From positions 2,052-66,051 of the forward strand of contig CASDTC010000003.1 in the NCBI GenBank assembly GCA_949283535.1: a stretch of 64,000 nucleotides of DNA. The letters run 5' to 3'. Shown here piece after piece: positions 17,118-61,951 of the stretch (within the stretch, counting starts at the first letter, position 1; each line of letters starts with the position of its first letter). The position numbers were made by a program, and so were the translations under genes. The notes under the pieces were generated by a model that searched no databases, was not told the origin of the DNA, and saw only the letters and a list, made by a program, of their open reading frames with translations. The DNA is from an uncultured Pseudomonadota bacterium. Lineage in GTDB: Bacteria > Pseudomonadota > Alphaproteobacteria > Rs-D84.

Positions 17118-17303
17118 TGTTGAAAATGTTTTTTAGTTTTTTATTAACAAGTTTTCAACAATTTTTTGTTAGTTTTCCCGGGTGTTTATAGATTCTGTTG
17201 AAAAAGTATCGCGTATAATTAACTGTTGAAAAAAATGGTGGTTTTCAACATTTTTAACAAAATTTTGTAAATGCTTTTTATGCTTGTTGAAAACTGTTGA
17301 AAT
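17118..17303. promoter_or_regulatory. array of seven TGTTGAAAA / TTTTCAACA motifs plus TATAAT boxes upstream of virB3
   Basis: Forward copies lie at 17118, 17196, 17224, 17285 and 17295 (the last reads TGTTGAAAT). Inverted copies lie at 17152 and 17242. TATAAT boxes lie at 17214-17219 and 17307-17312. Confidence 0.6.
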
Positions 17304-17340
17304 TGTTATAATTCAAGCATCAGGGGGGATTTTATTCAAA

Positions 17341-17637
17341 ATGAAGCAACAAATACTGAAAGCATTGGCAAACCCACCGCGCATTTTTTATGTGCCGTAT
17401 TCGTTGGCAGTCATTAATTTTGCAGTGCAATTCATTGTTTTTATTATAGTTTTTGTTGTTGGGTTATCTGTTAGTGGTGGTGATATCGCAGTAAACCCGC
17501 TGTATTTTTTATTGTCTGTTATTGTGGTTCATATGATTTTGGCGTTCTTTGCAAAGCGTGAACCACAGTTGGGGCAAATTGTGGCGGCAAAAATACAATT
17601 GTTAAAAAAGAAAATACCAGGAAGATTGGCGGCGTAA
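17341..17637 (+). CDS. virB3: type IV secretion system protein VirB3/TrbD-like
   Basis: The start was trimmed to the ATG at 17341, after an AGGGGGGA RBS. This 98-aa protein has two TM helices and an ..AKREPQLGQIV.. region like the VirB3 'DP.f..v' segment. It lies directly upstream of virB4. Confidence 0.75.
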   Translation: MKQQILKALANPPRIFYVPYSLAVINFAVQFIVFIIVFVVGLSVSGGDIAVNPLYFLLSVIVVHMILAFFAKREPQLGQIVAAKIQLLKKKIPGRLAA

Positions 17638-17638
17638 A

Positions 17639-20047
17639 ATGAATGGATTTTTTGAATATTTTGCAGGTGGCGGATTCCCATTAACAGCGATAATTCTGGT
17701 TATGGCGGTTGTTTTTGTGTTTATTGTATTGCTGATGTATATTCCTGTACTGACACGGCGAATTTTCCCAAAATTTGGATATACCAGGTATTCACAATAT
17801 TTGCCTTTTCAGACGGTATATAATGATAATTCAATGACGCTGACCGATGGCAGTATAATTCGTGTATATCATGTTGATGGGGTGCAAACCAGTATGCAGG
17901 ATGATGCAACGCGCGAAAAATTCTTGGATTTGCGGGCACAATTATTTAATCAAATCCGTGACCCAAATGTTGTTTTGCGATTTTATATGATACGCGATGC
18001 GGTTGATGAAAATACAAATTATGAATTTGATCAACCGGTTTTACAGCAAATTTATAATAAATGGAAATCCCAGGGTTTGCGTATATTTACAAATAATTAC
18101 TATATCGTTTTATCGGTTGGTGGCGCAAATGCGCGTGAAAAATTAAATCAATATGGTAATTATATTGAAACAATATTGGCGGCGTACAGACCAACGGTCT
18201 TGCGTAATGACGCGCCGAATAATATGGCAAAGTTCTTTGGACGAATTTTATCGCCAATTACCAAGCCGTCACCAATTGTGTGCGACCAGCGTATCGGGGA
18301 AGTAGCCACAGTCGATGATGTTGAATTTTTGAAAAATGGTATTGTTCGGTATATTGGGGCGGGGCGACAATCTTTTGCGGCAATGATTTCTTTTAAAATG
18401 TCGCCGGATTATTTAGATGAAGATTTCTTTAATTCTGTATCAACAATACAAACAGAAATGATTTGTATGAATGGATTTAATATTTTGGGAACCGCAGATG
18501 TTGAAAAGGTTATTCAACAACGACGCGCAACAACAAAAGAAAATGAAACAACCGCCGAAGAACAAATTTCAGCTGCGCAAAGTGCAATGGATGAAAATAT
18601 TTCCGGAAATCAAAGTTTGGTTAATTATTATCCATTGTTTGTTATATTTGGCGCAACAATTGATGATTTGCAGAAATATGTTGATGAATTTAATAAAATT
18701 GCGGCGTCGTTCGGGGTTTCGCCAATTGTTGAAACATTTGCATCAAAGGTTTCATGGTTTGCACAAATTCCAGGATTTAATACTTTCCCGCGCAGCTTTA
18801 AAATGTTATCACGGACGGCGGCAATCAGTATCCCAATGTCCAGTACACCGCGTGGTGTTGCAAACAGTGATTGGGGACCGGGACCGTTGGTTATTTTCCC
18901 AACAGCACAGGGTACGCCATATCAGTTTCAATTTCATGTGTCTGATAAACCCGCTGCGGTTGCACATACATTAACAATTGGTCCAACAGGTGGTGGTAAA
19001 ACGACTTTATTCAGTTTCTTGATATCACAATCATTGCGGCATCCGCGCTTAAAAGCATTTTTCTTTGACAGAAATAAAGGTGCAGAAATATTTACATTGG
19101 CGGTTGGTGGTAAATATATAACCATGCACGGTAAAGAAAAAGATCAAGATGTATTCCAAACACATTTAAATCCATTGAAAATGCCAGATACAGCGGAAAA
19201 TCGTGCGTTTTTACGCCGGTGGTTTGCAATGATTACGGGACAATCGGATGCAATTTCAGCCGATGAAATTGCGCGCGCTGTATCGGTGAATTTTGACTAC
19301 TTACAAGAAAAAGACAGATTGTTAAAAAATTTGTGGCAGAGCTGTTTTTCATCTGCAGGAAAAATGCGTCCGGAATTAAAAAAGTGGATTGACCCATTAC
19401 AATATGGGGATATATTTAATGAAGATTCTGATACATTGGATTTGAATTCCAGATTAACAACATTTGATTTTACAGAAATACTGCAAGACGAAGTTTTGGC
19501 ACCTGCGGTTATATCTTATATATTACACAGAATTAATAATATTACCGTATCTGGTGGAAATCCGTCATTAATCATGATTGATGAAACGGCGCCAATGCTG
19601 GAAAATAAAATGTTCCGTGATAATTTTATAACAGGTTTACAAGAAGGGCGCAAAAATCGCCAGGCATATATGGTCGCGTTCCAGCGCGCAAATGTGCTGG
19701 ATAAACTGGGAATCGGTGATGTTGTTCGTGGTCAAGCGCAAACAGTTTTGTTTTTCCGTAATCCTGCCGCAGATATTAATGATTATGCGCATTGGAATTT
19801 AAATCCGCTGGAAATGGCATTTATCCAGGGCAAGGCATATCCAAACCTGAAACGCGCGGTACTATTATCACGACCCGTTAATGGGGAATCTGTTATTTTA
19901 AATACTGAATTGGGCGGATTGGGGAATATGTTAAAATTGTTTGAATCAGGGCGGTCATCTGTATTACTGGCCGAAGAATTATACAAGCAATATGGTAATA
20001 ATTTTGTTGCAGAATATTTGAAAAAGCAGGGGGCAGGTAATTTATAA
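17639..20047 (+). CDS. virB4: type IV secretion ATPase VirB4/TrbE/CagE family
   Basis: This 802-aa protein has Walker A (GPTGGGKTT), Walker B-like (LIMIDETAPML) and an N-terminal membrane-associated region. Confidence 0.9.
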   Translation: MNGFFEYFAGGGFPLTAIILVMAVVFVFIVLLMYIPVLTRRIFPKFGYTRYSQYLPFQTVYNDNSMTLTDGSIIRVYHVDGVQTSMQDDATREKFLDLRAQLFNQIRDPNVVLRFYMIRDAVDENTNYEFDQPVLQQIYNKWKSQGLRIFTNNYYIVLSVGGANAREKLNQYGNYIETILAAYRPTVLRNDAPNNMAKFFGRILSPITKPSPIVCDQRIGEVATVDDVEFLKNGIVRYIGAGRQSFAAMISFKMSPDYLDEDFFNSVSTIQTEMICMNGFNILGTADVEKVIQQRRATTKENETTAEEQISAAQSAMDENISGNQSLVNYYPLFVIFGATIDDLQKYVDEFNKIAASFGVSPIVETFASKVSWFAQIPGFNTFPRSFKMLSRTAAISIPMSSTPRGVANSDWGPGPLVIFPTAQGTPYQFQFHVSDKPAAVAHTLTIGPTGGGKTTLFSFLISQSLRHPRLKAFFFDRNKGAEIFTLAVGGKYITMHGKEKDQDVFQTHLNPLKMPDTAENRAFLRRWFAMITGQSDAISADEIARAVSVNFDYLQEKDRLLKNLWQSCFSSAGKMRPELKKWIDPLQYGDIFNEDSDTLDLNSRLTTFDFTEILQDEVLAPAVISYILHRINNITVSGGNPSLIMIDETAPMLENKMFRDNFITGLQEGRKNRQAYMVAFQRANVLDKLGIGDVVRGQAQTVLFFRNPAADINDYAHWNLNPLEMAFIQGKAYPNLKRAVLLSRPVNGESVILNTELGGLGNMLKLFESGRSSVLLAEELYKQYGNNFVAEYLKKQGAGNL

Positions 20048-26005: not shown

Positions 26006-26449
26006 ATGAAAAAAGCATTGGCATTTTGTTCACTGGTGTTGGCATTGGCGGCATGTGGTGGAATGATAAAACCAGAAAATGGCAGTCAATATCTAACACA
26101 ATTGGATGCGGAACCGATTGGTTGTACATTCTTGTATAAAATTGAGTCAGAGGTTTCAGTATATGATGCAGATGATGCGCGTACATATTTGGAAAACAGA
26201 ATTGTTGACCAGGCGCGTCCAGGAAATGCATATTGGATTACCAGCCAGCGTACGCGTCCAAATGAATGGGTGATTTTTGGACCGGAACGCGCGTTTATAC
26301 TGGTCGCAAATGTTTATGATTGTCCACATCCAAATTCTGTTCGTACCGCCGCTGATGGTGGCAGCAGTATAACAGCAACACCGATTTTGGTTGAACATCA
26401 AATAAATTGCAGTGGTGCAATGTATGGTGGACAAACAGGTGGATGCTGA
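26006..26449 (+). CDS. lipoprotein (147 aa)
   Basis: It has a signal peptide with lipobox LAAC. No confident family assignment was made. Confidence 0.6.
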   Translation: MKKALAFCSLVLALAACGGMIKPENGSQYLTQLDAEPIGCTFLYKIESEVSVYDADDARTYLENRIVDQARPGNAYWITSQRTRPNEWVIFGPERAFILVANVYDCPHPNSVRTAADGGSSITATPILVEHQINCSGAMYGGQTGGC

Positions 26450-26478
26450 TATTAAAAAAATTAAAATATTAAAAATTA

Positions 26479-26506
26479 ACCGCCGTTATGAAATGCGGCG
26501 GTTTTT
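26479..26506 (+). terminator. intrinsic terminator
   Basis: An ACCGCCG...CGGCGGT stem is followed by TTTTT. Confidence 0.7.
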
Positions 26507-26576
26507 ACTGTATTCTGTGTTTGCCAAAACAGATGTTTTTATGTTATAATTATTTAAAATATTATAGAGAGAGAAA

Positions 26577-27839
26577 TTGTCAGGTCAGGTTATAACCATT
26601 AACAGAAAAAAATATGCCGTTGGATTGTTTTGGCAACCAACGGGGGCGGGGTATGTTGCGCGAACATATGCCAGAACACTGGCACGCAGTATTGATAAAA
26701 AATTGAATTTGTATACGGAATACCGCGCAATGGTTGGTTTGGGGTCTAAACGCGCCGGACATCGCGTTGGTATGGACAGTGCGGCGGCGGCGGTTACAGA
26801 TGCGCTGGGGGAATATTCATCTTTCTTGGCGGTTTTTCAAATTGATAAATTATTTTATTTGGTTGCGGTTCGTAATGGCGTAATACTGGAAGATAAAATT
26901 TTTGATAAAGAAGAAGATGCGCGTGCAGAATATTTTAAGCTGTCTGAAATACCGGATTGGGGTGCGTTATTTGCACCATCATCGTGGGGTATGCCGCGTG
27001 CTGTTGAACGAAATATATCTGATTTAATTATGCGTGCAGTGCGCGCGCCATTGCGTCCAATCAGTCGTATTGGTGCAGGTATAATTTCTGGGGTGTTATT
27101 ATTGGTATTTGTGTTGGGGGCAATGTGGTTCTTTCGTGAGCCATTAGAACAAATTGCAACAACATCTGAAATTTCAGAAATTAGTAATCCTGAATTAGCC
27201 GCAGAATTAGAAAAACGGGTTGAAGAAAAAAACAAAGAATTAGATGCAGCGTTTGATATTGATAAACCAACGCCACCCCAGCCAATTGTTTTGCCGTATG
27301 AATATCTGCCAGATCCGATTATTCGCGCCCAGGTTTGTTATCAGGCAATGGGATTTTTAATGCAGCCGATAACCGGGTGGGTACAAACATCGGTGGAATG
27401 TGGTGAAGAATATGCAACAGTTCAATTTGTGCGTGATTATGGTACATTGGATGATTTTTATTTAATGGCAACAGAATTAATGCCGGCATCATTTGTTCAA
27501 CAAGAATCTGAAAATTCATTGACTGTTCGGGCAAAATTGCCGAATGTGCCAACAATTGCATCAATTGATGAACGCGATGTTGAAACAGTACTGCGTGCGG
27601 TTATGACGGCGTTTCAGGGTATTGATACACCGGCAGATGCCCAGATGGTTGTGGATACATTAACAAATGGCGTTGATACGGTATATCTGAATGTGGTAGA
27701 AGTTGCGGCGGAATCAAAGTTGATACCAACGCAATTTATGCGCATCTTTGACGATTTTGGCGGTGTGTATATGACGCGTTGTGCATGGAATGCGTCATCG
27801 CGCACATGGAACTATGAGGTGATTATCTATGCAAAATAA
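26577..27839 (+). CDS. type IVb pilus accessory protein, PilO (R64) / PilO2-like
   Basis: It uses a TTG start after an AGAGAGAGAA RBS. The N-terminal 'KKYAVGLFWQP' segment and a single mid-protein TM resemble the PilO/PilO2 family as recalled. It sits first in a pilO-P-Q-R-like order. Confidence 0.5.
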   Translation: MSGQVITINRKKYAVGLFWQPTGAGYVARTYARTLARSIDKKLNLYTEYRAMVGLGSKRAGHRVGMDSAAAAVTDALGEYSSFLAVFQIDKLFYLVAVRNGVILEDKIFDKEEDARAEYFKLSEIPDWGALFAPSSWGMPRAVERNISDLIMRAVRAPLRPISRIGAGIISGVLLLVFVLGAMWFFREPLEQIATTSEISEISNPELAAELEKRVEEKNKELDAAFDIDKPTPPQPIVLPYEYLPDPIIRAQVCYQAMGFLMQPITGWVQTSVECGEEYATVQFVRDYGTLDDFYLMATELMPASFVQQESENSLTVRAKLPNVPTIASIDERDVETVLRAVMTAFQGIDTPADAQMVVDTLTNGVDTVYLNVVEVAAESKLIPTQFMRIFDDFGGVYMTRCAWNASSRTWNYEVIIYAK

Positions 27840-28563
27840 ATTAAAATTATTCATGATATTTTTTATGGTGGGAATGATTTCTGGACCGGTTCCATTGTAC
27901 GCAGCAGACGCAACCGCAAATGATGTTGAAAATGCAATTGCCACTGATGCAGAAATTACCGAAGATGATGTTGCTGCGGAATTAGAGGCAGCAAATGCCG
28001 ATGCGGTTGCTGCATATGATATGGACGGGTCGTTGTTTCAGCAAATAACAACATTGGAACAAGAAAAAGTTTTAATGGAACTGGAAAAAGAACGCGCACA
28101 ATTGGATTTAGAACTGGACAGATTGGCAGCGGAAAAAATAAAACTGCATATGGAAATAGATACTTTATCAGGACGCGCAGAACAGCAACAGCAGGAATTA
28201 GAAAATGCCCAGGCTGAACTGGAAGCCGAAGCCGCACGGTTGGAACGCGAAAAAGAACAGTTAGCCGCACAAACAGAAGAATTAAAATCTGGGGCGGAAA
28301 ATAAAACAAAATCCAGTTCGTCAAGCACAGATGAAACAGAATCAAAAATTAATTTTGGTGAAAAATATCGCTTGATAAATGTTGTTGGTGCGGGATCGCA
28401 ATTACAGGCAACGATTGAAGACCTGGATACAGGGCAGAATAAAACAATCAGTGTTGGCAAAGTTGTTGATGGATATACTGTGAAATCTATATCACTGGAT
28501 GAAGGAATTGTGTTTGCAGATGGTACAGATACCCAGACATTAAATATTACAAAATCTAAATAA
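27829..28563 (+). CDS. PilP-like periplasmic protein with long acidic coiled coil
   Basis: It has a signal peptide and a coiled coil of about 110 aa. The C-terminal beta domain (KYRLINVVGAGSQLQATIEDLDTGQNKTISVGKVVDGYTVKSISLDEGIVF) is typical of PilP/GspC-HR-like domains. Confidence 0.5.
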   Translation: MQNKLKLFMIFFMVGMISGPVPLYAADATANDVENAIATDAEITEDDVAAELEAANADAVAAYDMDGSLFQQITTLEQEKVLMELEKERAQLDLELDRLAAEKIKLHMEIDTLSGRAEQQQQELENAQAELEAEAARLEREKEQLAAQTEELKSGAENKTKSSSSSTDETESKINFGEKYRLINVVGAGSQLQATIEDLDTGQNKTISVGKVVDGYTVKSISLDEGIVFADGTDTQTLNITKSK

Positions 28564-28580
28564 ATTGTGGGCATGTACAC

Positions 28581-30218
28581 ATGAATGAAACAGAAAACAA
28601 TATTTTAAATAATGTACCAGTTGCGTTAAAACCGTCAATTCCGGCGGGATTGGAAAACGCAGATAACAAGGATATTGTTGATTATTTGTTTTCAAATGGT
28701 AATAGATTGCTGACTGCAACAGGGGCGGAACAAGAATTACCAAAAGATACCCAGGGTTTGGTTGCATATTTTTCGGGTGGTGAAATTATCATATCGCGTA
28801 CGCATCGATATGACGGGCGGGTGTTGGCTTTTCTGGATTTATTAAAAAAACGCGCGCGTCCAATGCGTATACCGTTTTATTCGGATTTGGGTCTGGTTTC
28901 CAGTATTTACAAGGCGTATGAAAGCAGACTGGGTGGCGCAACCCGTTCCCGCCAGGATTATGACAACCAAATGCAGAAAGATTTTGTCGATATTATCGCC
29001 AAGGCTGCTGCACAAAAGGTGTCAGATATTCATATAGAGGTTGCCGATCAAACAACAATTTATTTTCGTATCGATGGCAGTATGCAACCAGTATTGGAAT
29101 ATAATGCGGGGTGGGGGGAATCTTTTGTTCGTGCGGCGTTTGCATCATCGGATATTTCAAATGCAAACTATGCCCAGAATGAATATCAATCGGCGCAGAA
29201 AGATGGGCGAACCCCACTGCGCGGGACCAAGGATTTATATCTGCCGCGTGGAATTTTAAGTATTCGTATGCAATTTAATCCAATCGCATTCGGCAGTCGG
29301 TATGTTGTTATGCGATTGCTGTATGATAACCCGTCTGAGGGGATTAAAACCGAACAAGAATTCGGTGAATATGAACAGAAACTGTTGATGCGTTTGCGTT
29401 CGTTTCCAACGGGATTGGTTATTGTTGCTGGTCCAACCAGTTCGGGTAAGTCAACCACATTGGTGCGTAATATGTCATTGATGTTAAAAGAACATCACTA
29501 TGAAATAAATATGATAACGGTCGAAGATCCGGTTGAACAAAAAATATTTGGCGCGCACCAGATGCCTGTGGTTAATACAATGAACGAAGAACAGCGCGAA
29601 GAAAAATATACCGAAGCATTGGCGGCGGCATTGCGCAGCGACCCAGATACTTTAATGGTTGGTGAAATTCGTACGCTGGCGGCGGCGCAGTTAACGGTGC
29701 GTGGGGCATTGTCGGGGCATAATGTTTGGACAACACTGCACGCGAATTCGGCAATGGCGGCATTGACCAGATTGTTGGATTTGGGAATAGAGGCATTTAA
29801 ACTGAAAGAAGAAACATTGATGCGTGGATTGATATCTATGCGTCTGTTTAAAAAGTTATGTCCGTATTGTCGTGAACGATTAATTGACCACCCAGAAAAT
29901 CCGGCGTATCGCCGTGTGATGGATGCGTTTGGTGAATTGGGTTTGCGCCAGGTGTATATTCGTGGCGCAGGTTGTGAAGAATGCAAAGGCACGGGAACAC
30001 TGGGACGAATAAAAGCCGGTGAAATTATTATTACAAACAGTGAATTTTTGCGTTTGGCATTGTCTGGTAATACCGATGGGGCGGTTAAGTATTGGTTGGA
30101 AGAAATGGATGGACGCACATTGAAAGAGGCTGCCACATCACTGATGTTACAGGGTGTTATCGGGGTCGATGAACTGGAACGTTGGGTTGGGTTGCTGGAC
30201 AGACCGGGGGTGTATTGA
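28581..30218 (+). CDS. GspE/PilB-family secretion ATPase (R64 PilQ-like)
   Basis: It has Walker A (GPTSSGKST), a Walker B/Asp box (..DPDTLMVGEIR..), a His box (..GHNVWTTLHAN..) and a tetracysteine motif (CPYC...C..C). Confidence 0.88.
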   Translation: MNETENNILNNVPVALKPSIPAGLENADNKDIVDYLFSNGNRLLTATGAEQELPKDTQGLVAYFSGGEIIISRTHRYDGRVLAFLDLLKKRARPMRIPFYSDLGLVSSIYKAYESRLGGATRSRQDYDNQMQKDFVDIIAKAAAQKVSDIHIEVADQTTIYFRIDGSMQPVLEYNAGWGESFVRAAFASSDISNANYAQNEYQSAQKDGRTPLRGTKDLYLPRGILSIRMQFNPIAFGSRYVVMRLLYDNPSEGIKTEQEFGEYEQKLLMRLRSFPTGLVIVAGPTSSGKSTTLVRNMSLMLKEHHYEINMITVEDPVEQKIFGAHQMPVVNTMNEEQREEKYTEALAAALRSDPDTLMVGEIRTLAAAQLTVRGALSGHNVWTTLHANSAMAALTRLLDLGIEAFKLKEETLMRGLISMRLFKKLCPYCRERLIDHPENPAYRRVMDAFGELGLRQVYIRGAGCEECKGTGTLGRIKAGEIIITNSEFLRLALSGNTDGAVKYWLEEMDGRTLKEAATSLMLQGVIGVDELERWVGLLDRPGVY

Positions 30219-30219
30219 T

Positions 30220-31293
30220 ATGACATCAAGAATGGATCTGTGGTATGCGCGTATTGTTTTTCGTATGAATACGGAAAAAAGAATGGCCACCGCGCGCAAG
30301 CTGGCATCGCTGTTGCGTAATGATTTTACATTGATGGATGCGCTGGGGCGGATGGAGTCCATTGAATCCCACGGTGGTAAAAAGCCAAACGAACCATTTG
30401 CAATCGTTATGCGTGAATGGCAAAAAAACCTGGAACGCGGGATGAGTTTTTCTGATGCCACACGCGGTTGGGTGCCACCAGATGAAACACTGTTGGTGAC
30501 ATCGGGAAATTTGTCTGACTTGGTTGTTGCGCTGGAAAATGTCAGCCGGGTTGTTACCGGTACCCAGCGTATACGCCGCGCAATGGTAAATGCAATTGCG
30601 TATCCGTTATTCTTGCTGTTGTTGACATTTGGTATAATTATGTTGGTGGGGATTTATCTGGTCCCGCCATTGGCAGAAATTGCCGGTGATAGTATGGTGT
30701 GGCGTGGTATGGCGCGTTCGCTGATATGGCTGTCTGAATTTTCAATACAGTATTGGTATATTATTTTGGGTATGTTTGTTGCACTGTGTGCTATTATCGG
30801 TATCAGTTTACCAAATTGGTCGGGACGGTTGCGTGCAAAATTTGATAAGTTGCCACCATGGAATGTTTATAAAATTCAAATGTCTGTGGGCTGGTTGATG
30901 AGTTTGTCGTCAATGGTTGCCGCCGGTATTACAATACCAGATGCAATGCGTATGCTGGCGGATAATTCAAATAAATACCTGCGTGATATACTGGAAGAAA
31001 CATTGCACTATATCGCAAATGGCGCAAATCTGGGGGCGGCATTAAACAATACAGGGCGCGATTTTCCAAATTCAGAAATAATTGGCGATTTGGCAATATA
31101 TGCTGATATGAATGGTTTTGATGAAAATTTGGGGCGTGTGGCAAATGATTATCTGGAAGAATCTGTGCGCAAAATGGAATCTGTATCAAATGCATTAAAT
31201 AGTATTGGAATTTTACTGGTATCGGCGATTATTGCATGGGTCGTGCTGGGTACTTTCCAGATGCAAGATCAAATTACCAGCGCACTGACATAA
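30220..31293 (+). CDS. GspF/PilC-family inner-membrane platform protein (R64 PilR-like)
   Basis: The start was trimmed to ATG 30220 (TGATATG junction with the ATPase stop). It has three TM segments and a duplicated cytoplasmic-helical architecture. Confidence 0.75.
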   Translation: MTSRMDLWYARIVFRMNTEKRMATARKLASLLRNDFTLMDALGRMESIESHGGKKPNEPFAIVMREWQKNLERGMSFSDATRGWVPPDETLLVTSGNLSDLVVALENVSRVVTGTQRIRRAMVNAIAYPLFLLLLTFGIIMLVGIYLVPPLAEIAGDSMVWRGMARSLIWLSEFSIQYWYIILGMFVALCAIIGISLPNWSGRLRAKFDKLPPWNVYKIQMSVGWLMSLSSMVAAGITIPDAMRMLADNSNKYLRDILEETLHYIANGANLGAALNNTGRDFPNSEIIGDLAIYADMNGFDENLGRVANDYLEESVRKMESVSNALNSIGILLVSAIIAWVVLGTFQMQDQITSALT

Positions 31294-31350: not shown

Positions 31351-34394
<3,044 letters not shown>

Positions 34395-55157: not shown

Positions 55158-55296
55158 AGAAAACAACCGTGCAAGTATCTGCATATAATTACTGCATCCC
55201 AGGGCTTTGCTAAGTCCCGAACCCACATCCCTATGGATTCAGCAGAATTCATATCATGCAGTGATTGAAATAAAAAACCGCATTTTGCGGTTTTTT
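55158..55296 (+). ncRNA. candidate small RNA with its own promoter and terminator
   Basis: TTAACA (55122-27) - 18 nt - TATAAT (55146-51) lies upstream. Hairpins include GGTTG-CAGAAAA-CAACC and CTGCAT...ATGCAG. It carries the 27-nt motif at 55216-42, shared with 44427-53, and ends at terminator 55272-96. Confidence 0.35.
55272..55296. terminator. bidirectional intrinsic terminator
   Basis: The sequence is A6-ACCGC-ATTTT-GCGGT-T6, and it overlaps the stop of the ftsA-like gene. Confidence 0.75.
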
Positions 55297-57073
55297 ATTG
55301 TTCAGAATGTTTTAATAAACTTTGTACCGCCAATGGAAAATCATTACTGCGTGCCAGGTATGAACCACTGACCAATAAATCGGCGCCAGCAGTCCAACAT
55401 TTTTGTGCGGTTTCAGCATTTATTCCGCCATCAACAGATATTAAGTATTTTAGCCCATATTTTTTGCGTGTCGCCGCCAATACTGATATTTTATGCAGGC
55501 ATGTGTCGTCAAATTCTTGACCCGCCGCCCCAGGTGGTACAGTCATTATCATTATTTCGTCAATTTCACGCAAAATCGGCTTTAATATTTCTACAGATGA
55601 TTCTGGGTTTAATGCAACGCCCGCGCGTTTTGATGCTGCGCGTACCGAACGAATTGCTGCACGCAGTCCAGATGTATTTGTTGACATTATAACCGTGTCT
55701 GCACCCGCAGAAATTGCGTCATTCGCCCAGACGGTTGGACTTTCCGTCATTAAATGTACATGCAGATGCGCGTTTGTATGTGCGCGTATGTATTTTAATT
55801 CCGCAATACTGCCGGCAATGCGGTCAACATAAAATCCATCCATTATATCGACATGTATCATTGATATGCCGCCCGCCCGGAATAATGAATATGTTTCCGG
55901 ACTTTTCATATTAAAGCATAATGTGCTGGGCATTATGGGTATAAATTTTTTTTGTGGGTGCCGACGCCGGCGGAATATAGACATTATGCGATTACTGAAC
56001 TGTTCAACGCGGGCGTGGCGCATTGCATATTTGTTGCGATGTTCTGATTCTAGATTCCATATGTATGTTGATAATGCACGAACAGATGCGTCAGAATGAT
56101 TGTTCTTTACAGGTATTGAAAAAACATTTTCAACAAATTCATCAATTCCATCAATTTCAGCACCACCGCCAGATATCATTATTGATGATGGTTTATATTT
56201 TGAAAATGCCGCATTTGATGCGTCCTTGATACGGGCGCATATATCGACCATATGTGGTAATATAATGTCATTTACATCGGCGCGTGAAAAATCGTATGCC
56301 GTGTCTGCCGGGGTAAATCTGTCCATTTCGCGTGGCATTAATCCGGCGACATTGCGTTTTATTCGGTCGGCATCATCAAAATCAATATTTAATTTTTTTG
56401 ATATATCATTTGTTATATCTGTCCCACCAACAGATATTTTTGCATGCCATACGGGACCACGATCCATCCAAATAGATGCGCTGGTAAATTTTGCGCCAAA
56501 ATCAATAAACATTGTTGTTTGTTTTTTGGGGCGAAATACCGAATTTTGCAAAAATTGTGGGTCGTAAAATGCGTCTGGTTGAATATGGGCATGGCGCAGA
56601 TTGGACCCCAGTTCATCGATTTGTGCATATGAATAAAATATTACACCAAATGCAGATATTAATTGTCGGTCTGTATGACCAATTGGTGAAAACATATTTC
56701 GTGCGGTTGGTGTATCGTATCGCAGTGGAAATATATGCATTGGGAAATATCCGTCTGGTGGGGTAATTTGTGAAATTTGCGTTCGAACATCTGATACAGT
56801 TATTTTATGTTCACCATGCCAAATCGTATTTTTCGCAATCATTTCAAATTTTGATTGCCCAAAATCACCCGTAATATATGCAGAATCAAAATGCGATCCG
56901 ATTTGTTGTTCCAGTTCGTCAATTACAGACTTTAATGCAAATACTGTATCAAAACTGTCAACGGCATGCATTGCAGATTGAACAATTCGACCGCCCAGTA
57001 CATGATGTGCAATGCCGCGTACGCAGTGCGTGCCAACATCCAGACATAAAAAAGTTGAATCCCCCAGGTTCAT
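55295..57073 (-). CDS. ftsA: FtsA-like actin-fold protein fused in frame to a ribulose-phosphate 3-epimerase-like TIM barrel
   Basis: The N-terminal ~375 aa are FtsA-like (LCLDVGTHCVRG, IDFGAKFTS, ISGGGAEIDGIDEFVENVFSIPV). The C-terminal ~215 aa are Rpe-like (IMPSTLCFNM, HVDIMDGFYV, HLMTE, ISVDGGIN). There is no stop between the two parts. Confidence 0.7.
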   Translation of the reverse strand: MNLGDSTFLCLDVGTHCVRGIAHHVLGGRIVQSAMHAVDSFDTVFALKSVIDELEQQIGSHFDSAYITGDFGQSKFEMIAKNTIWHGEHKITVSDVRTQISQITPPDGYFPMHIFPLRYDTPTARNMFSPIGHTDRQLISAFGVIFYSYAQIDELGSNLRHAHIQPDAFYDPQFLQNSVFRPKKQTTMFIDFGAKFTSASIWMDRGPVWHAKISVGGTDITNDISKKLNIDFDDADRIKRNVAGLMPREMDRFTPADTAYDFSRADVNDIILPHMVDICARIKDASNAAFSKYKPSSIMISGGGAEIDGIDEFVENVFSIPVKNNHSDASVRALSTYIWNLESEHRNKYAMRHARVEQFSNRIMSIFRRRRHPQKKFIPIMPSTLCFNMKSPETYSLFRAGGISMIHVDIMDGFYVDRIAGSIAELKYIRAHTNAHLHVHLMTESPTVWANDAISAGADTVIMSTNTSGLRAAIRSVRAASKRAGVALNPESSVEILKPILREIDEIMIMTVPPGAAGQEFDDTCLHKISVLAATRKKYGLKYLISVDGGINAETAQKCWTAGADLLVSGSYLARSNDFPLAVQSLLKHSEQ

Positions 57074-58618: not shown

Positions 58619-59959
58619 ATGAATAAATTTAAAATATTTTTTGTATTAATGTTGGCAATCGTGGTCGCAGGTTGCGCCGCACGTCAACAAGAAGAACAGG
58701 TTCCCCAATACGATACGATAAATGTTGTTGAAAATTTTGTGATTGATGAAAATTCTGTGCCAATTTTTCCAAAGAAAGCCGCGCTGACAACAGATACTGC
58801 CCAGCGTTTTTCAATTGATTTACCAAAACGATGCACGGTTGATTGGGATAATCAAAATGTTGTGTCGGTTGTTCCCCAGGAAAAAATAGAAATGGTGCGT
58901 TTGGGGGTTGGTGATGAATTGCCAAATGATTTAAAGGTTTCTGATTATGAATTCAAGGAATTAAGTGTTAAAGAGGCATTGGATAAATTACTGGATGGTA
59001 CGGATATATCGGTGGTCGAAGATGAAGATTTAACAGAAACTATTTCTGGGACAATTACATCGGGGACGCTGTCGGATACGGTTGAACTGATTTCAAAAAT
59101 TGGACGCGCGTATTATTCGTATGATGCAATAAATGCAGAAATTCATTTGAAAAATCGTGCAAAGTGGATGATAAAAATGCCGTATGATGAAAATATTATA
59201 ATGGCATTGTTGGACGCGTTGCATGGTGCGGATATGCGAAATTTAATTGTTGATTGGCAAGACAAGACAATCGTTTTCGAAGGTAATTACCAAACAGAAC
59301 GCGAAGTCGCAAAAATTATTTCTGAATTTGCATCAAAGAAATATTTGTTGGCATGGGATATCGATGTATATCGTGTGTATCCGCGTACTGACAATCCAAT
59401 TATTTGGATGAATTTATTACCGGCGTTCGGGGACAAGAATGTGAAAATGTCTGTGCCGGGTGTTGTTGGTCGTGCGTTGGTGGTCAGTCCAGAAATAAAT
59501 ACAAAAACACTGCAAGAATTTTTATCACAACAGGCAAATGTTGTTCTGATTTCCCAGGGACGCTTTGTTATCCCAAACGGTTGGCAATCACGATTTGATA
59601 TTGGTCAATGCAGTAAAGAAGATAGATTAGAGACAGACTTAATAATCGGTGCAACGGGTACATATGGTGATTATGGTGGTACAAACAAGATTGATTCAAA
59701 AATTGTATTACGAACCAGCAATGGTGAATTGTCGTCATTTAACATCCCATCCAGTGTTGGGGATAACTATGTAATTATTGGTATTCCGACACATTCATTT
59801 GTTACAACCCCAGAAACATTAATCAGCCCGTTTGCGGAATTGGTTGTATTTATGTCGCCGCGTTTAATATCGATTATTGATACGCCTGATGCAAAAAATG
59901 TTACACCAGAACAACTGGTTGGTGATGCATTGCGTGCGTATTTAAGTGAAGAACAGTAA
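58619..59959 (+). CDS. lipoprotein secretin-like outer-membrane protein (type IVb PilN/BfpB-like)
   Basis: It has lipobox VAGC and an N-terminal secretin/STN-like segment (LSVKEALDKLLDGTDISVV). The C-terminal region has secretin-like strands and ends in ..FAELVVFMSPRLI (compare e.lifitP.i.). Confidence 0.45.
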   Translation: MNKFKIFFVLMLAIVVAGCAARQQEEQVPQYDTINVVENFVIDENSVPIFPKKAALTTDTAQRFSIDLPKRCTVDWDNQNVVSVVPQEKIEMVRLGVGDELPNDLKVSDYEFKELSVKEALDKLLDGTDISVVEDEDLTETISGTITSGTLSDTVELISKIGRAYYSYDAINAEIHLKNRAKWMIKMPYDENIIMALLDALHGADMRNLIVDWQDKTIVFEGNYQTEREVAKIISEFASKKYLLAWDIDVYRVYPRTDNPIIWMNLLPAFGDKNVKMSVPGVVGRALVVSPEINTKTLQEFLSQQANVVLISQGRFVIPNGWQSRFDIGQCSKEDRLETDLIIGATGTYGDYGGTNKIDSKIVLRTSNGELSSFNIPSSVGDNYVIIGIPTHSFVTTPETLISPFAELVVFMSPRLISIIDTPDAKNVTPEQLVGDALRAYLSEEQ

Positions 59960-59971
59960 AGGTATAAAATA

Positions 59972-61228
59972 ATGTTGTTTTCAAGACTGGAACGCAAAAT
60001 CGCATTTAGATATCTGGGCGCGAAAAAACGCGGATTTGGTTCCGTTATATCATGGGTGTCACTGATTGGTATTACACTGGGGGTGGCAACATTGATTGTT
60101 GTTATGTCTGTTATGGGTGGCTTTCATGATACATTATTGTCGCGTATTGTTGGCATGAATGGGCATGTTGTTGTATATCACCAAGATGGTGCAATCAAAG
60201 ATTATGATTTCTTGATTGATAAAATGAAACAAAACAAAATTGTTGCTGCAAACGCAACAGGAATCGTTCCAATTGCCGAAGGGCAGGTTATGGCAATGGC
60301 AAATGGAAACAATACTGGCGCAATGATACGCGGAATTCGTATGTCTGATTTGGCAGCCAAGGTTGAAAATGGAACGCGTATTTATGGCAAACCATTGGAT
60401 CAAATTCGTGATGGGGAATTGGTTGCAGGGGCATCGTTGACGCGTGCATTGCGTGTTGGAATGGGTGATAATATTTCATTGGCATCGGCAAATACATCAA
60501 CACCAACGCCGTTTGGTTCAATGCCGCGTATAATGGCGTATCCGGTTATGTCATCTTTCTTTATGGGAATGTATGAATATGATTCTGGGTATATATTTAT
60601 GCCGCTGGAAACCGCACAAAAATATTTAAATATTCCAGATGCCGTAACCCATATCGATTTGTTCTTGCGCAATCCCGAAGATACAATTGCGGTGCGTGAT
60701 GCGTTGGCAAATCTGTTGCCAGACGGGTTCGTTGTGCGTGATTGGCGCGATTTAAATCGTGGGTTTGTTGGCGCATTACAGGTTGAATCCAATGTTATGT
60801 TTTTAATATTATTATTAATCGTTATTGTTGCGGCGTTTAATATTGTGTCCAGTTTGGTTATGTTGGTCAAAGATAAATCCAAGGATATTGCTGTATTACG
60901 AACATTTGGTGTATCGCGCCGGTCAATGATGAAAATATTTATTTTGTCGGGAACCAGTATTGGTGTATTGGGGGCGTTTTTTGGAACTGTATTCGGTGTG
61001 CTGATTGCAATATATATCGAACCAATACGGCAATTCTTTCAATGGGCAACAGGACGCGATTTATTCCCGGCGGAATTATATTATTTGTCGGAATTGCCGT
61101 CTAAATTGGTTTTCAGTGATGTTGTTGGAATTGCGTTGATTGCGATTGTTTTGGCATTTTTGGCAACGCTGTATCCCGCATGGAAGGCGGCAAGTACAGA
61201 CCCAGTTGAAGTTTTAAGAAATGAATAA
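59972..61228 (+). CDS. lolC: lipoprotein-releasing system permease LolC/LolE
   Basis: It begins FRYL..KKRGF.S.ISWVSLIGITLGVA and has the MacB-type periplasmic domain and a C-terminal FtsX 3-TM bundle. Confidence 0.85.
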   Translation: MLFSRLERKIAFRYLGAKKRGFGSVISWVSLIGITLGVATLIVVMSVMGGFHDTLLSRIVGMNGHVVVYHQDGAIKDYDFLIDKMKQNKIVAANATGIVPIAEGQVMAMANGNNTGAMIRGIRMSDLAAKVENGTRIYGKPLDQIRDGELVAGASLTRALRVGMGDNISLASANTSTPTPFGSMPRIMAYPVMSSFFMGMYEYDSGYIFMPLETAQKYLNIPDAVTHIDLFLRNPEDTIAVRDALANLLPDGFVVRDWRDLNRGFVGALQVESNVMFLILLLIVIVAAFNIVSSLVMLVKDKSKDIAVLRTFGVSRRSMMKIFILSGTSIGVLGAFFGTVFGVLIAIYIEPIRQFFQWATGRDLFPAELYYLSELPSKLVFSDVVGIALIAIVLAFLATLYPAWKAASTDPVEVLRNE

Positions 61229-61240
61229 AGGAATCGCGTA

Positions 61241-61951
61241 ATGGCAAATATTTTAAATTCGTTGTCTAAGATTCAAAAAGGTGATGTCGTCCTGTCTGTG
61301 CGCGATATCAAAAAAACTTTTATGGAAGGGGGACAGCCATTACATATTTTGCGTGGCGGTGGTTTTGATTTACATCGCGGTGAAATTATTGCGCTGGTTG
61401 GACCATCGGGCAGTGGTAAATCAACGCTGTTGCAATGTGTTGGATTGTTGGATAAACCAACCAGTGGCAGTATTTTATTAACAGGTGTCCCAGTGCAAAA
61501 AATGGATGATGAAATGCGCACGATGATGCGGCGGCGTAAAATTGGATTTGTGTATCAGCGGCATAACTTATTATCTGATTTTACTGCGGTGGAAAATGTT
61601 GCATTGCCAATGATGGCAAATGGTGTTGATGAACGAACCGCAATGGCGCGCGCAATGAAATTATTACGCGCGGCAAATGTTGCACATCGTGCATCACATC
61701 TGCCGGGGGAAATGTCGGGGGGTGAACAACAGCGTACCGCAGTTGCACGTGCGTTGGCAAATAATCCAGAAATTTTGCTGGCAGATGAACCAACCGGCAG
61801 TCTGGATCCCGCGCATGCGGCATCTGTGTTTGAATTGTTATTGGATTTAGCGCGAAAAAATAAAATGGCAATGCTGTTTGTAACACATGATATGAATTTA
61901 GCATCACGGGCAGATAAAAAGATTTCAATTTGTGATGGAATTGTGGAATAA
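61241..61951 (+). CDS. lolD: lipoprotein-releasing system ATP-binding protein LolD
   Basis: It has Walker A (GPSGSGKST), the signature MSGGEQQR and Walker B (LLADEPT). Confidence 0.88.
   Translation: MANILNSLSKIQKGDVVLSVRDIKKTFMEGGQPLHILRGGGFDLHRGEIIALVGPSGSGKSTLLQCVGLLDKPTSGSILLTGVPVQKMDDEMRTMMRRRKIGFVYQRHNLLSDFTAVENVALPMMANGVDERTAMARAMKLLRAANVAHRASHLPGEMSGGEQQRTAVARALANNPEILLADEPTGSLDPAHAASVFELLLDLARKNKMAMLFVTHDMNLASRADKKISICDGIVE

Follow-up and report, generated by a model that had tools for sequence, protein, structure and literature searches.

The window considered here, a stretch of 64,000 nucleotides (C3:2052-66051) from a genome assembly of 830,597 bp in 23 contigs (93% complete, about 41% GC), carries between positions 26577 and 31293 four coupled genes that an initial annotation had presented as an assembly block of a type IVb-like pilus. 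The source organism is a chicken-gut Candidatus Enterousia with a tiny genome (about 0.83 Mb), belonging to the order Rs-D84, and the sequencing runs that contain the window sequence are chicken-gut samples. All four genes are present where they had been placed, co-directional and overlapping or near-abutting, and sequence comparison indicates that they very probably form the inner-membrane assembly operon of a type IVb pilus that is chromosomal and complete. Positions given with no contig name are those of the window, and protein lengths are in amino acids (aa). The four genes are:

26577..27839, + strand: pilO, 420 aa from a TTG start, a PilO2/BfpC-type bitopic inner-membrane protein
27829..28563, + strand: pilP, 244 aa, overlapping the end of pilO by 11 nucleotides (nt)
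28581..30218, + strand: pilus extension ATPase of PilQ/BfpD type, GspE superfamily, 545 aa
30220..31293, + strand: platform protein of PilR/BfpE type, GspF family, 357 aa from an ATG; the longest open reading frame (ORF) starts from GTG 30154

The first protein had been read as PilO-like with a transmembrane segment, and it matches PF06864 PAP_PilO with 34.6 bits (cut-off 26.7) and has a single hydrophobic segment at residues 161-179. Its N-terminus reads ...RKKYAVGLFWQP, and residues 5-151 match the solved N-domain of BfpC (3VHJ; E 4e-6). The predicted architecture is a cytoplasmic actin-like N-domain, one transmembrane segment and a periplasmic C-domain. A published account (PMC3984277) describes PF06864 proteins as confined to type IVb machines and as bitopic, their N-domain being cytoplasmic and actin-like. 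The second protein carries the signal peptide, acidic coiled coil and PilP domain that had been described. Residues 29-175 hold 38 D/E against 14 K/R, with coiled-coil-type matches, and residues 120-225 match TIGR03021 pilP_fam with 36.6 bits, a narrow margin over the cut-off of 34.65. PilP is an exported protein in which an acidic coiled-coil stalk is joined to a PilP beta domain, and it probably connects the inner-membrane complex with the secretin. Whether these two proteins match the PilO and PilP families had been set beforehand as a test of the proposal, and both score above the curated cut-offs.

The third and fourth proteins belong, as proposed, to the GspE and GspF families. The ATPase matches Pfam T2SSE with 219 bits and has intact motifs (Walker A at residue 284, Asp box at 315, Walker B at 358) and a tetracysteine site (CPYC at 427, CEEC at 465). 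A second test set in advance asked whether the two proteins cluster with type II secretion or Tad systems, and by score both are far closer to type IVb machines. In a search of the PDB, BfpD gives 264 bits over residues 38-531, whereas GspE gives 152 over residues 138-531 and PilB or PilF 125-150; the ATPase of a type IVb operon on a Bosea plasmid reaches 298 bits, compared with 152-173 for GspE across comparisons. The platform protein has two T2SSF domains (94.6 bits) and three hydrophobic segments, and in BLASTP it scores 238 bits against the Bosea platform, 102 against R64 PilR, 55 against HofC and 38 against GspF; type IVb platforms score 179-238 bits. Its match to the NCBIfam GspF model (71 bits) is far under the cut-off of 424. 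The ATG at 30220 is the likely start, rather than the GTG at 30154, because it lies one base past the ATPase stop and is preceded by a GGGGG stretch.

No pilin, peptidase or secretin lies within the block, as had been noted, or elsewhere in the window. A scan of all six genome frames for class III signal peptides, together with family searches, located these parts and PilL on other contigs, in keeping with the suggestion that the fibre subunit is encoded elsewhere:

C10:9215-10840: secretin (pilN), a 541-aa lipoprotein with a LAAC lipobox; Pfam Secretin 52 bits (cut-off 27.5)
C10, 36 bases upstream of the secretin gene: pilL, 318 aa, with a TcpQ domain (65 bits)
C7:37235-37723: putative prepilin peptidase, 162 aa; Peptidase_A24 56 bits (cut-off 26.5)
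C8:17483-17938: pilin A, 151 aa, class III signal motif MKQEFG/ASLIE... (the slash marks the cut)
C13:6159-6623: pilin B, 154 aa, class III signal motif MIQESG/RSMIE...
C8:15378-11518, - strand: three large pilin-like proteins of 451, 404 and 438 aa in one operon

The best NCBIfam model for the secretin is TIGR02520 (PilN, type IVB secretin) with 247 bits, compared with 95 for MshL, and BLASTP gave no match to GspD. The pilL and secretin genes adjoin pilO in related families. The A24 peptidase is short and single-copy. Pilins A and B are paralogs (33% identity) with a 6-residue leader, Ala or Arg at position +1, Glu at +5 and a C-terminal Cys pair in each; pilin A matches the major pilin of an E. 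coli plasmid type IVb system with E 4e-7 and PF08805 PilS with E 5e-4. The large pilin-like proteins have class III motifs (with Gln at +5 in the first, of 451 aa) and weak mutual similarity. G(-1) and E(+5) do not vary among 38 aligned homologs of the 404-aa protein, and in its AlphaFold2 (AF2) model the only confident region, residues 20-172, is a long N-terminal helix with a beta-sheet, at a predicted local distance difference test score (pLDDT) of about 80. With the two pilins excepted, tblastn found each machine part in single copy, and searches with every part revealed no second pil or gsp operon in the genome, so that a complete conventional operon of which the block might be a paralogous fragment is not found.

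The pilus genes are therefore spread over at least five loci (the window, C10, C8, C13 and C7), and the earlier description of a chromosomally dispersed type IVb machine stands. The accompanying suggestion that the machine is possibly reduced is not borne out for the core parts, since only PilM, PilI/J/K and a retraction ATPase were not found. The features of a type IVb system that are present comprise a BfpD/PilQ-type ATPase, a GspF platform, a PF06864 PilO, a TIGR03021 PilP, a PilN-type secretin with its TcpQ partner, and an A24 peptidase. A Tad/Flp assignment is disfavoured: the ATPase scores 40 bits with the Tad-type model TIGR03819 against 219 with the GspE-type model, the platform is a single two-domain GspF protein and not a TadB/C pair, and the pilins of 151-154 aa are not Flp-like, as judged without an Flp hidden Markov model.

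Several observations tell against a complete type IVb pilus. The TIGR02520 score of the secretin lies under the NCBIfam equivalog cut-off of 288. Type IVb pilins have a leader of about 15-30 aa, a residue other than Phe at +1 and a large D-region; the pilins found here are atypical for the class, with a leader of only 6 residues and, for pilin A, a PF08805 score of 20.5 bits, just under the cut-off of 22. A Foldseek search of the PDB with the model of the 404-aa pilin-like protein gave no significant match (nothing below E 0.2). No retraction ATPase was found in the genome by tblastn, and PilM was not found, the best PF07419 score in the genome being 11 bits. An ATPase tree of 25 sequences (15 from Rs-D84, Bosea, two E. 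coli plasmid operons, R64 PilQ, K-12 GspE, HofB, three short ATPases and VirB11, without a labelled CpaF) recovers a monophyletic Rs-D84 clade but does not separate type IVb from the type II secretion and type IVa references (long branches, support 81/82). Three metatranscriptome runs from chicken gut yielded contigs that span parts of each of the four genes, with depths much like that of gyrB, but this RNA support is weak, as the contigs carry no strand information and may include carried-over DNA. Finally, no pilus has been shown by experiment or image in any Rs-D84 bacterium.

Two candidates for the parts not found were considered and rejected. The only other T2SSE-family gene in the genome, C4:40048-41043, encodes a 331-aa ATPase that is VirB11 (155 bits) and not a retraction ATPase. 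A 147-aa lipoprotein gene at window 26006-26449, between lpxC and pilO, was rejected as a substitute for PilM or PilN; the protein has no Pfam or NCBIfam family match and no BLASTP match to R64 PilM. It is kept at 30 of the 30 loci examined in the genus, with a ratio of non-synonymous to synonymous substitution rates (dN/dS) of 0.09. It is treated as a neighbour and not as a pilus part, given its own terminator and its absence from the position before pilO in a related genus (g3 below).

The signals between that lipoprotein gene and pilO are:

26478..26503, + strand: intrinsic terminator (consensus scan only), a 9-bp stem with 6 G-C pairs followed by TTTT
26521..26550, + strand: sigma-70-type promoter candidate for the pilus operon, TTGCCA, 18-nt spacer, TG-TATAAT

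The candidate terminator would close the lipoprotein gene and separate it from the pilus operon. The promoter candidate has 11 of 12 consensus matches and an extended -10, 27 nt ahead of the pilO start. It lies after the terminator, and the four-gene block appears to have its own promoter. The flanking identities proposed for lpxC and gyrB were borne out by Pfam, as was that of LpxK. Beside gyrB, a 189-aa ORF on the - strand (window 31351-31920) has 64-70% identity in related genera; it had been called RusA-like, a label that finds no backing in any Pfam or NCBIfam model. The neighbours of the block are housekeeping genes, no integrase or transfer genes occur in its flanks, and its GC content does not deviate from the surroundings.

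Further genes adjoin the parts on other contigs. The pilin A gene starts 13 nt past the dnaX stop (locus C8:15884-17938), and the order dnaX-pilin-OmpA-like-skp-lpxD-fabZ is common to C8 and to a contig of a relative (L059:5106-7130, an independent gene call). Given the spacing and the arrangement kept in the relative, pilin A is probably co-transcribed with this replication gene. The operon of the large pilin-like proteins (C8:10506-15378) is a neighbour of dnaX-pilin A and further encodes a membrane protein of 173 aa (MJ0042-type zinc ribbon and DUF3426) and a lipoprotein of 159 aa, both of which may belong to the pilus as additional parts. On the strand of pilN and downstream of it (C10:5098-9039) lie genes for a 155-aa protein with no family match, a 325-aa glycine-rich protein and an 812-aa Cys-rich protein, which may be co-transcribed with the secretin.

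Comparison of 20-kb regions around pilO from 14 genomes of Rs-D84 provides an outline of the history of the operon. The families are designated here f1 to f6, f1 being that of the window, and the genera g1 onwards, g1 being Enterousia. Families f2-f5, and within f1 the genera g6 and g8, have pilL-pilN-pilO-pilP-ATPase-platform as a contiguous set; at the two f2 loci PilP falls below the tblastn threshold, and the single f6 locus has no pilL-pilN beside pilO on the contig. In g1, g3 and g7, pilL-pilN lie elsewhere, pilO follows lpxK-lpxC, and gyrB stands on the far side of the block. In the ATPase tree g8 and g6 are the first to diverge, and g1, g7 and g3 group together as a single clade (support 99/96). 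As the split genera form one ATPase clade, and the operon is contiguous in other families and in g6 and g8, the Enterousia arrangement fits one derived operon fission. Two relatives with more contiguous assemblies show the distances involved, with the secretin at 342 kb, pilO at 221 kb and the pilins at 125 and 356 kb in a single-contig genome (G052), and the secretin at 168 kb, pilO at 288 kb and pilin A at 377 kb on one contig of another (G014).

Within the order, PilO is present in 149 of 151 genomes (141/141 of good quality), the secretin in 100 of 101 and pilin in 148 of 151, with two pilin copies in every f1 genome; the A24 peptidase was found in all 22 f1 genomes sampled, and the pilus parts span at least 19 genera. 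The pilus genes are clearly under purifying selection: within the genus, pairs with dS < 0.8 have a median dN/dS of 0.05 at PilO and 0.14 at PilP. The pilus is a core chromosomal, vertically inherited system in Rs-D84. That the genes are instead the decaying, non-functional remnant of the mating pilus of an R64/PAPI-1-type conjugative element, already disfavoured, is scarcely credible: the closest characterised relatives are plasmid- or island-borne, the genes are scattered, R64 pilM and pilI/J/K were not found and VirB-type genes are scattered in the genome too, but all parts are intact and single-copy and are found in 98-99% of genomes at the dN/dS values given, with housekeeping flanks free of integrase or transfer genes, a matching GC content and an operon promoter identified as a consensus match.

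By analogy with the bundle-forming pilus (BFP), the toxin-coregulated pilus (TCP) and R64, the following steps of assembly can be proposed. The peptidase would cut the 6-residue pilin leaders (MKQEFG/A..., MIQESG/R...). The hexameric ATPase would dock on the platform and on PilO, through the cytoplasmic actin-like domain of the latter, driving pilin extraction from the membrane and polymerisation, and the coiled-coil stalk of PilP would bridge the periplasm to the PilN lipoprotein secretin, which the TcpQ-domain PilL would support. The three pilin-like proteins of 404-451 aa would prime or cap the fibre, probably carrying binding specificity. Because no retraction ATPase was found, the fibre would be static, or its retraction passive or motor-independent, as in TCP.

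The role of the pilus is likely to be attachment to a partner cell, host surface or mucus, which is the likeliest function in view of the partner-dependent metabolism reported for the order. Rs-D84 genomes have been reported to be uniformly reduced and to lack nucleotide biosynthesis, and the bacteria to be probably dependent on partner cells; in the same study type IV pili were reported only for another lineage, and for Rs-D84 only 'hypothetical membrane-bound proteins' (PMC12306168). A more ambitious proposal, advanced tentatively and somewhat unlikely as a whole, is that the type IVb pilus is the organelle that enables an obligate partner-dependent life, with the three giant pilins recognising the partner or host surface and the fibre bringing contact for a VirB-type type IV secretion system (T4SS) or DNA for ComEC. 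Were this true, the pilus would be a 'lifeline' kept universally, comparable to the type IV pili that episymbiotic Patescibacteria possess.

DNA uptake through ComEC is a possible added role, given that ComEC (C2:17833-18651, 181 bits) and a DprA-like gene (C10:1722-2741, read from sequence) have been retained. That the pilus is chiefly a competence organelle feeding ComEC, for nucleotide supply or transformation, is unlikely. The genome encodes no other type IV filament system, both genes are kept in only 830 kb and the reported lack of nucleotide biosynthesis would fit such a role; however, ComEC and DprA also occur widely among bacteria that are not known to be competent, competence pili are not usually of the type IVb class, and uptake normally requires the retraction for which no ATPase was found.

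It is improbable that the machine is mainly a secretion device working through the PilN secretin, either with a pseudopilus like that of type II secretion or in the manner of TCP exporting TcpF, and not a maker of long adhesive fibres. The short pilins with 6-residue leaders do resemble pseudopilins, several pilin-like accessory proteins share one operon, a retraction ATPase was not found, and large Cys-rich secreted proteins are encoded near the pilin and secretin loci; moreover, the top-scoring NCBIfam model for the ATPase is GspE, although its 219 bits are far below the cut-off of 630. Against this, GspD, GspC and GspG have no matches in the genome, GspE and GspF match only the window genes, and weakly, and there are no GspC/L/M-type genes. 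The secretin matches PilN best, the platform prefers its type IVb counterpart to GspF by 238 bits to 38, and the ATPase, N-domain included, matches BfpD far better than GspE, while PilO2, PilP and TcpQ are type IVb hallmarks.

Other features of the window touch on these machines. The gene at 58619-59959, which had been put forward as secretin-like, codes for a strongly conserved lipoprotein of 446 aa and stands directly before the genes of a MacB/FtsX-type permease (59972-61228) and an ABC ATPase (61241-61951); it has more than 1200 homologs, the top 120 at least 78% identical. It was rejected as a secretin: the STN match is sub-threshold (16 bits), the Pfam Secretin model does not pick it up, hhalign against the PilN profile aligns an N0-like stretch only, at a probability of 5%, and the AF2 model (pLDDT 30) is unusable. 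The secretin is on C10, and this lipoprotein is not needed for a complete pilus machine. The co-residence with virB genes that had been noted is confirmed by VirB3-like and VirB4 genes, which stand alone at 17284-20047. Together with the VirB11 gene on C4 and a putative VirD4-like gene read from sequence at C8:23454-25676, they indicate that the type IV secretion genes seem to be scattered like those of the pilus. Apart from these systems, a 592-aa ORF downstream of ftsQ (55295-57073, - strand) matches FtsA at residues 189-327 and ribulose-phosphate 3-epimerase at residues 395-573, and is either a fusion or the product of a missed stop or frameshift.

Rs-D84 bacteria, Enterousia among them, abound in the gut, have not been cultured, carry genomes of less than 1 Mb and are thought to live off other cells. 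A near-universal type IVb pilus under strong purifying selection is a concrete candidate for partner or host attachment, and provides a surface antigen as well as an entry point for enrichment or imaging. The case further illustrates how the operon of an envelope machine can break up during genome reduction without loss of parts, and carries the warning that locus-based detectors will score such scattered systems as incomplete. A likeness in architecture only is provided by the rvh type IV secretion genes of Rickettsiales, a different machine (T4SS), which are dispersed on a reduced alphaproteobacterial chromosome yet functional.

Among known systems, the R64 thin pilus (pilI-V; comparison sequence NC_005014), PAPI-1/pKLC102 and Burkholderia Tfp7 share with the Enterousia system the PF06864 PilO2, the TIGR03021 PilP, the PilN-family lipoprotein secretin, a TcpQ-domain PilL and a short A24 peptidase without a methyltransferase domain (PMC3984277). 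R64 itself, with the order L-N-O-P-Q-R, is without a PilT-type retraction ATPase, as here. It is more distant than Bosea or the BFP-like systems (29% identity for PilQ, 24% for PilR and 28% for PilN), and R64 PilI, PilJ, PilK, PilM, PilT and PilV have no tblastn matches in the genome. The Enterousia system shares core families with the R64/PAPI-1 variant and works like it, but is not a full member, because PilM, PilI/J/K, a shufflon adhesin and a conjugative context were not found and the genes are chromosomal and dispersed.

The gene order that had been taken as that of R64 and PAPI-1 is indeed present, but it is not specific to them, being shared by BFP-like E. coli plasmid operons and by Bosea. 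The BFP-like operons run pilin-TcpQ-secretin-PilO2-hypothetical-ATPase-platform-ATPase2-A24-transglycosylase and so share the core order. Among solved structures, BfpD lies nearest to the ATPase, over near full length, and BfpC to the PilO N-domain. These operons have the pilin, peptidase, retraction ATPase and transglycosylase in cis and small minor pilins, whereas Enterousia has a 6-residue leader and three accessory pilins of 404-451 aa in a separate operon. The sub-variant is ambiguous between R64 and BFP on sequence criteria, since the PilP, PilN and PF06864 models point to R64 and the ATPase and PilO N-domain are nearest to BFP.

The best match outside the order is the operon of plasmid pBSY19_1 (NZ_CP016463.1) of Bosea sp. 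RAC05, also alphaproteobacterial, which reads TcpQ-secretin-PilO2-hypothetical-ATPase-platform-ATPase2-...-PilV. Identity is 35% for the ATPase, 35% for the platform, 27% for PilO (E 2e-24) and 45% for the TcpQ domain. The Bosea operon is plasmid-borne and contiguous, and it includes an additional ATPase (ATPase2, PilT-like) and a PilV annotated as a shufflon-type adhesin, whereas the Enterousia genes are chromosomal, lie at five or more loci and are without the second ATPase. Its core order of TcpQ, secretin, PilO2, PilP-like protein, ATPase and platform is the ancestral order in Rs-D84, and the Enterousia machine is of a known kind with a scattered gene layout.

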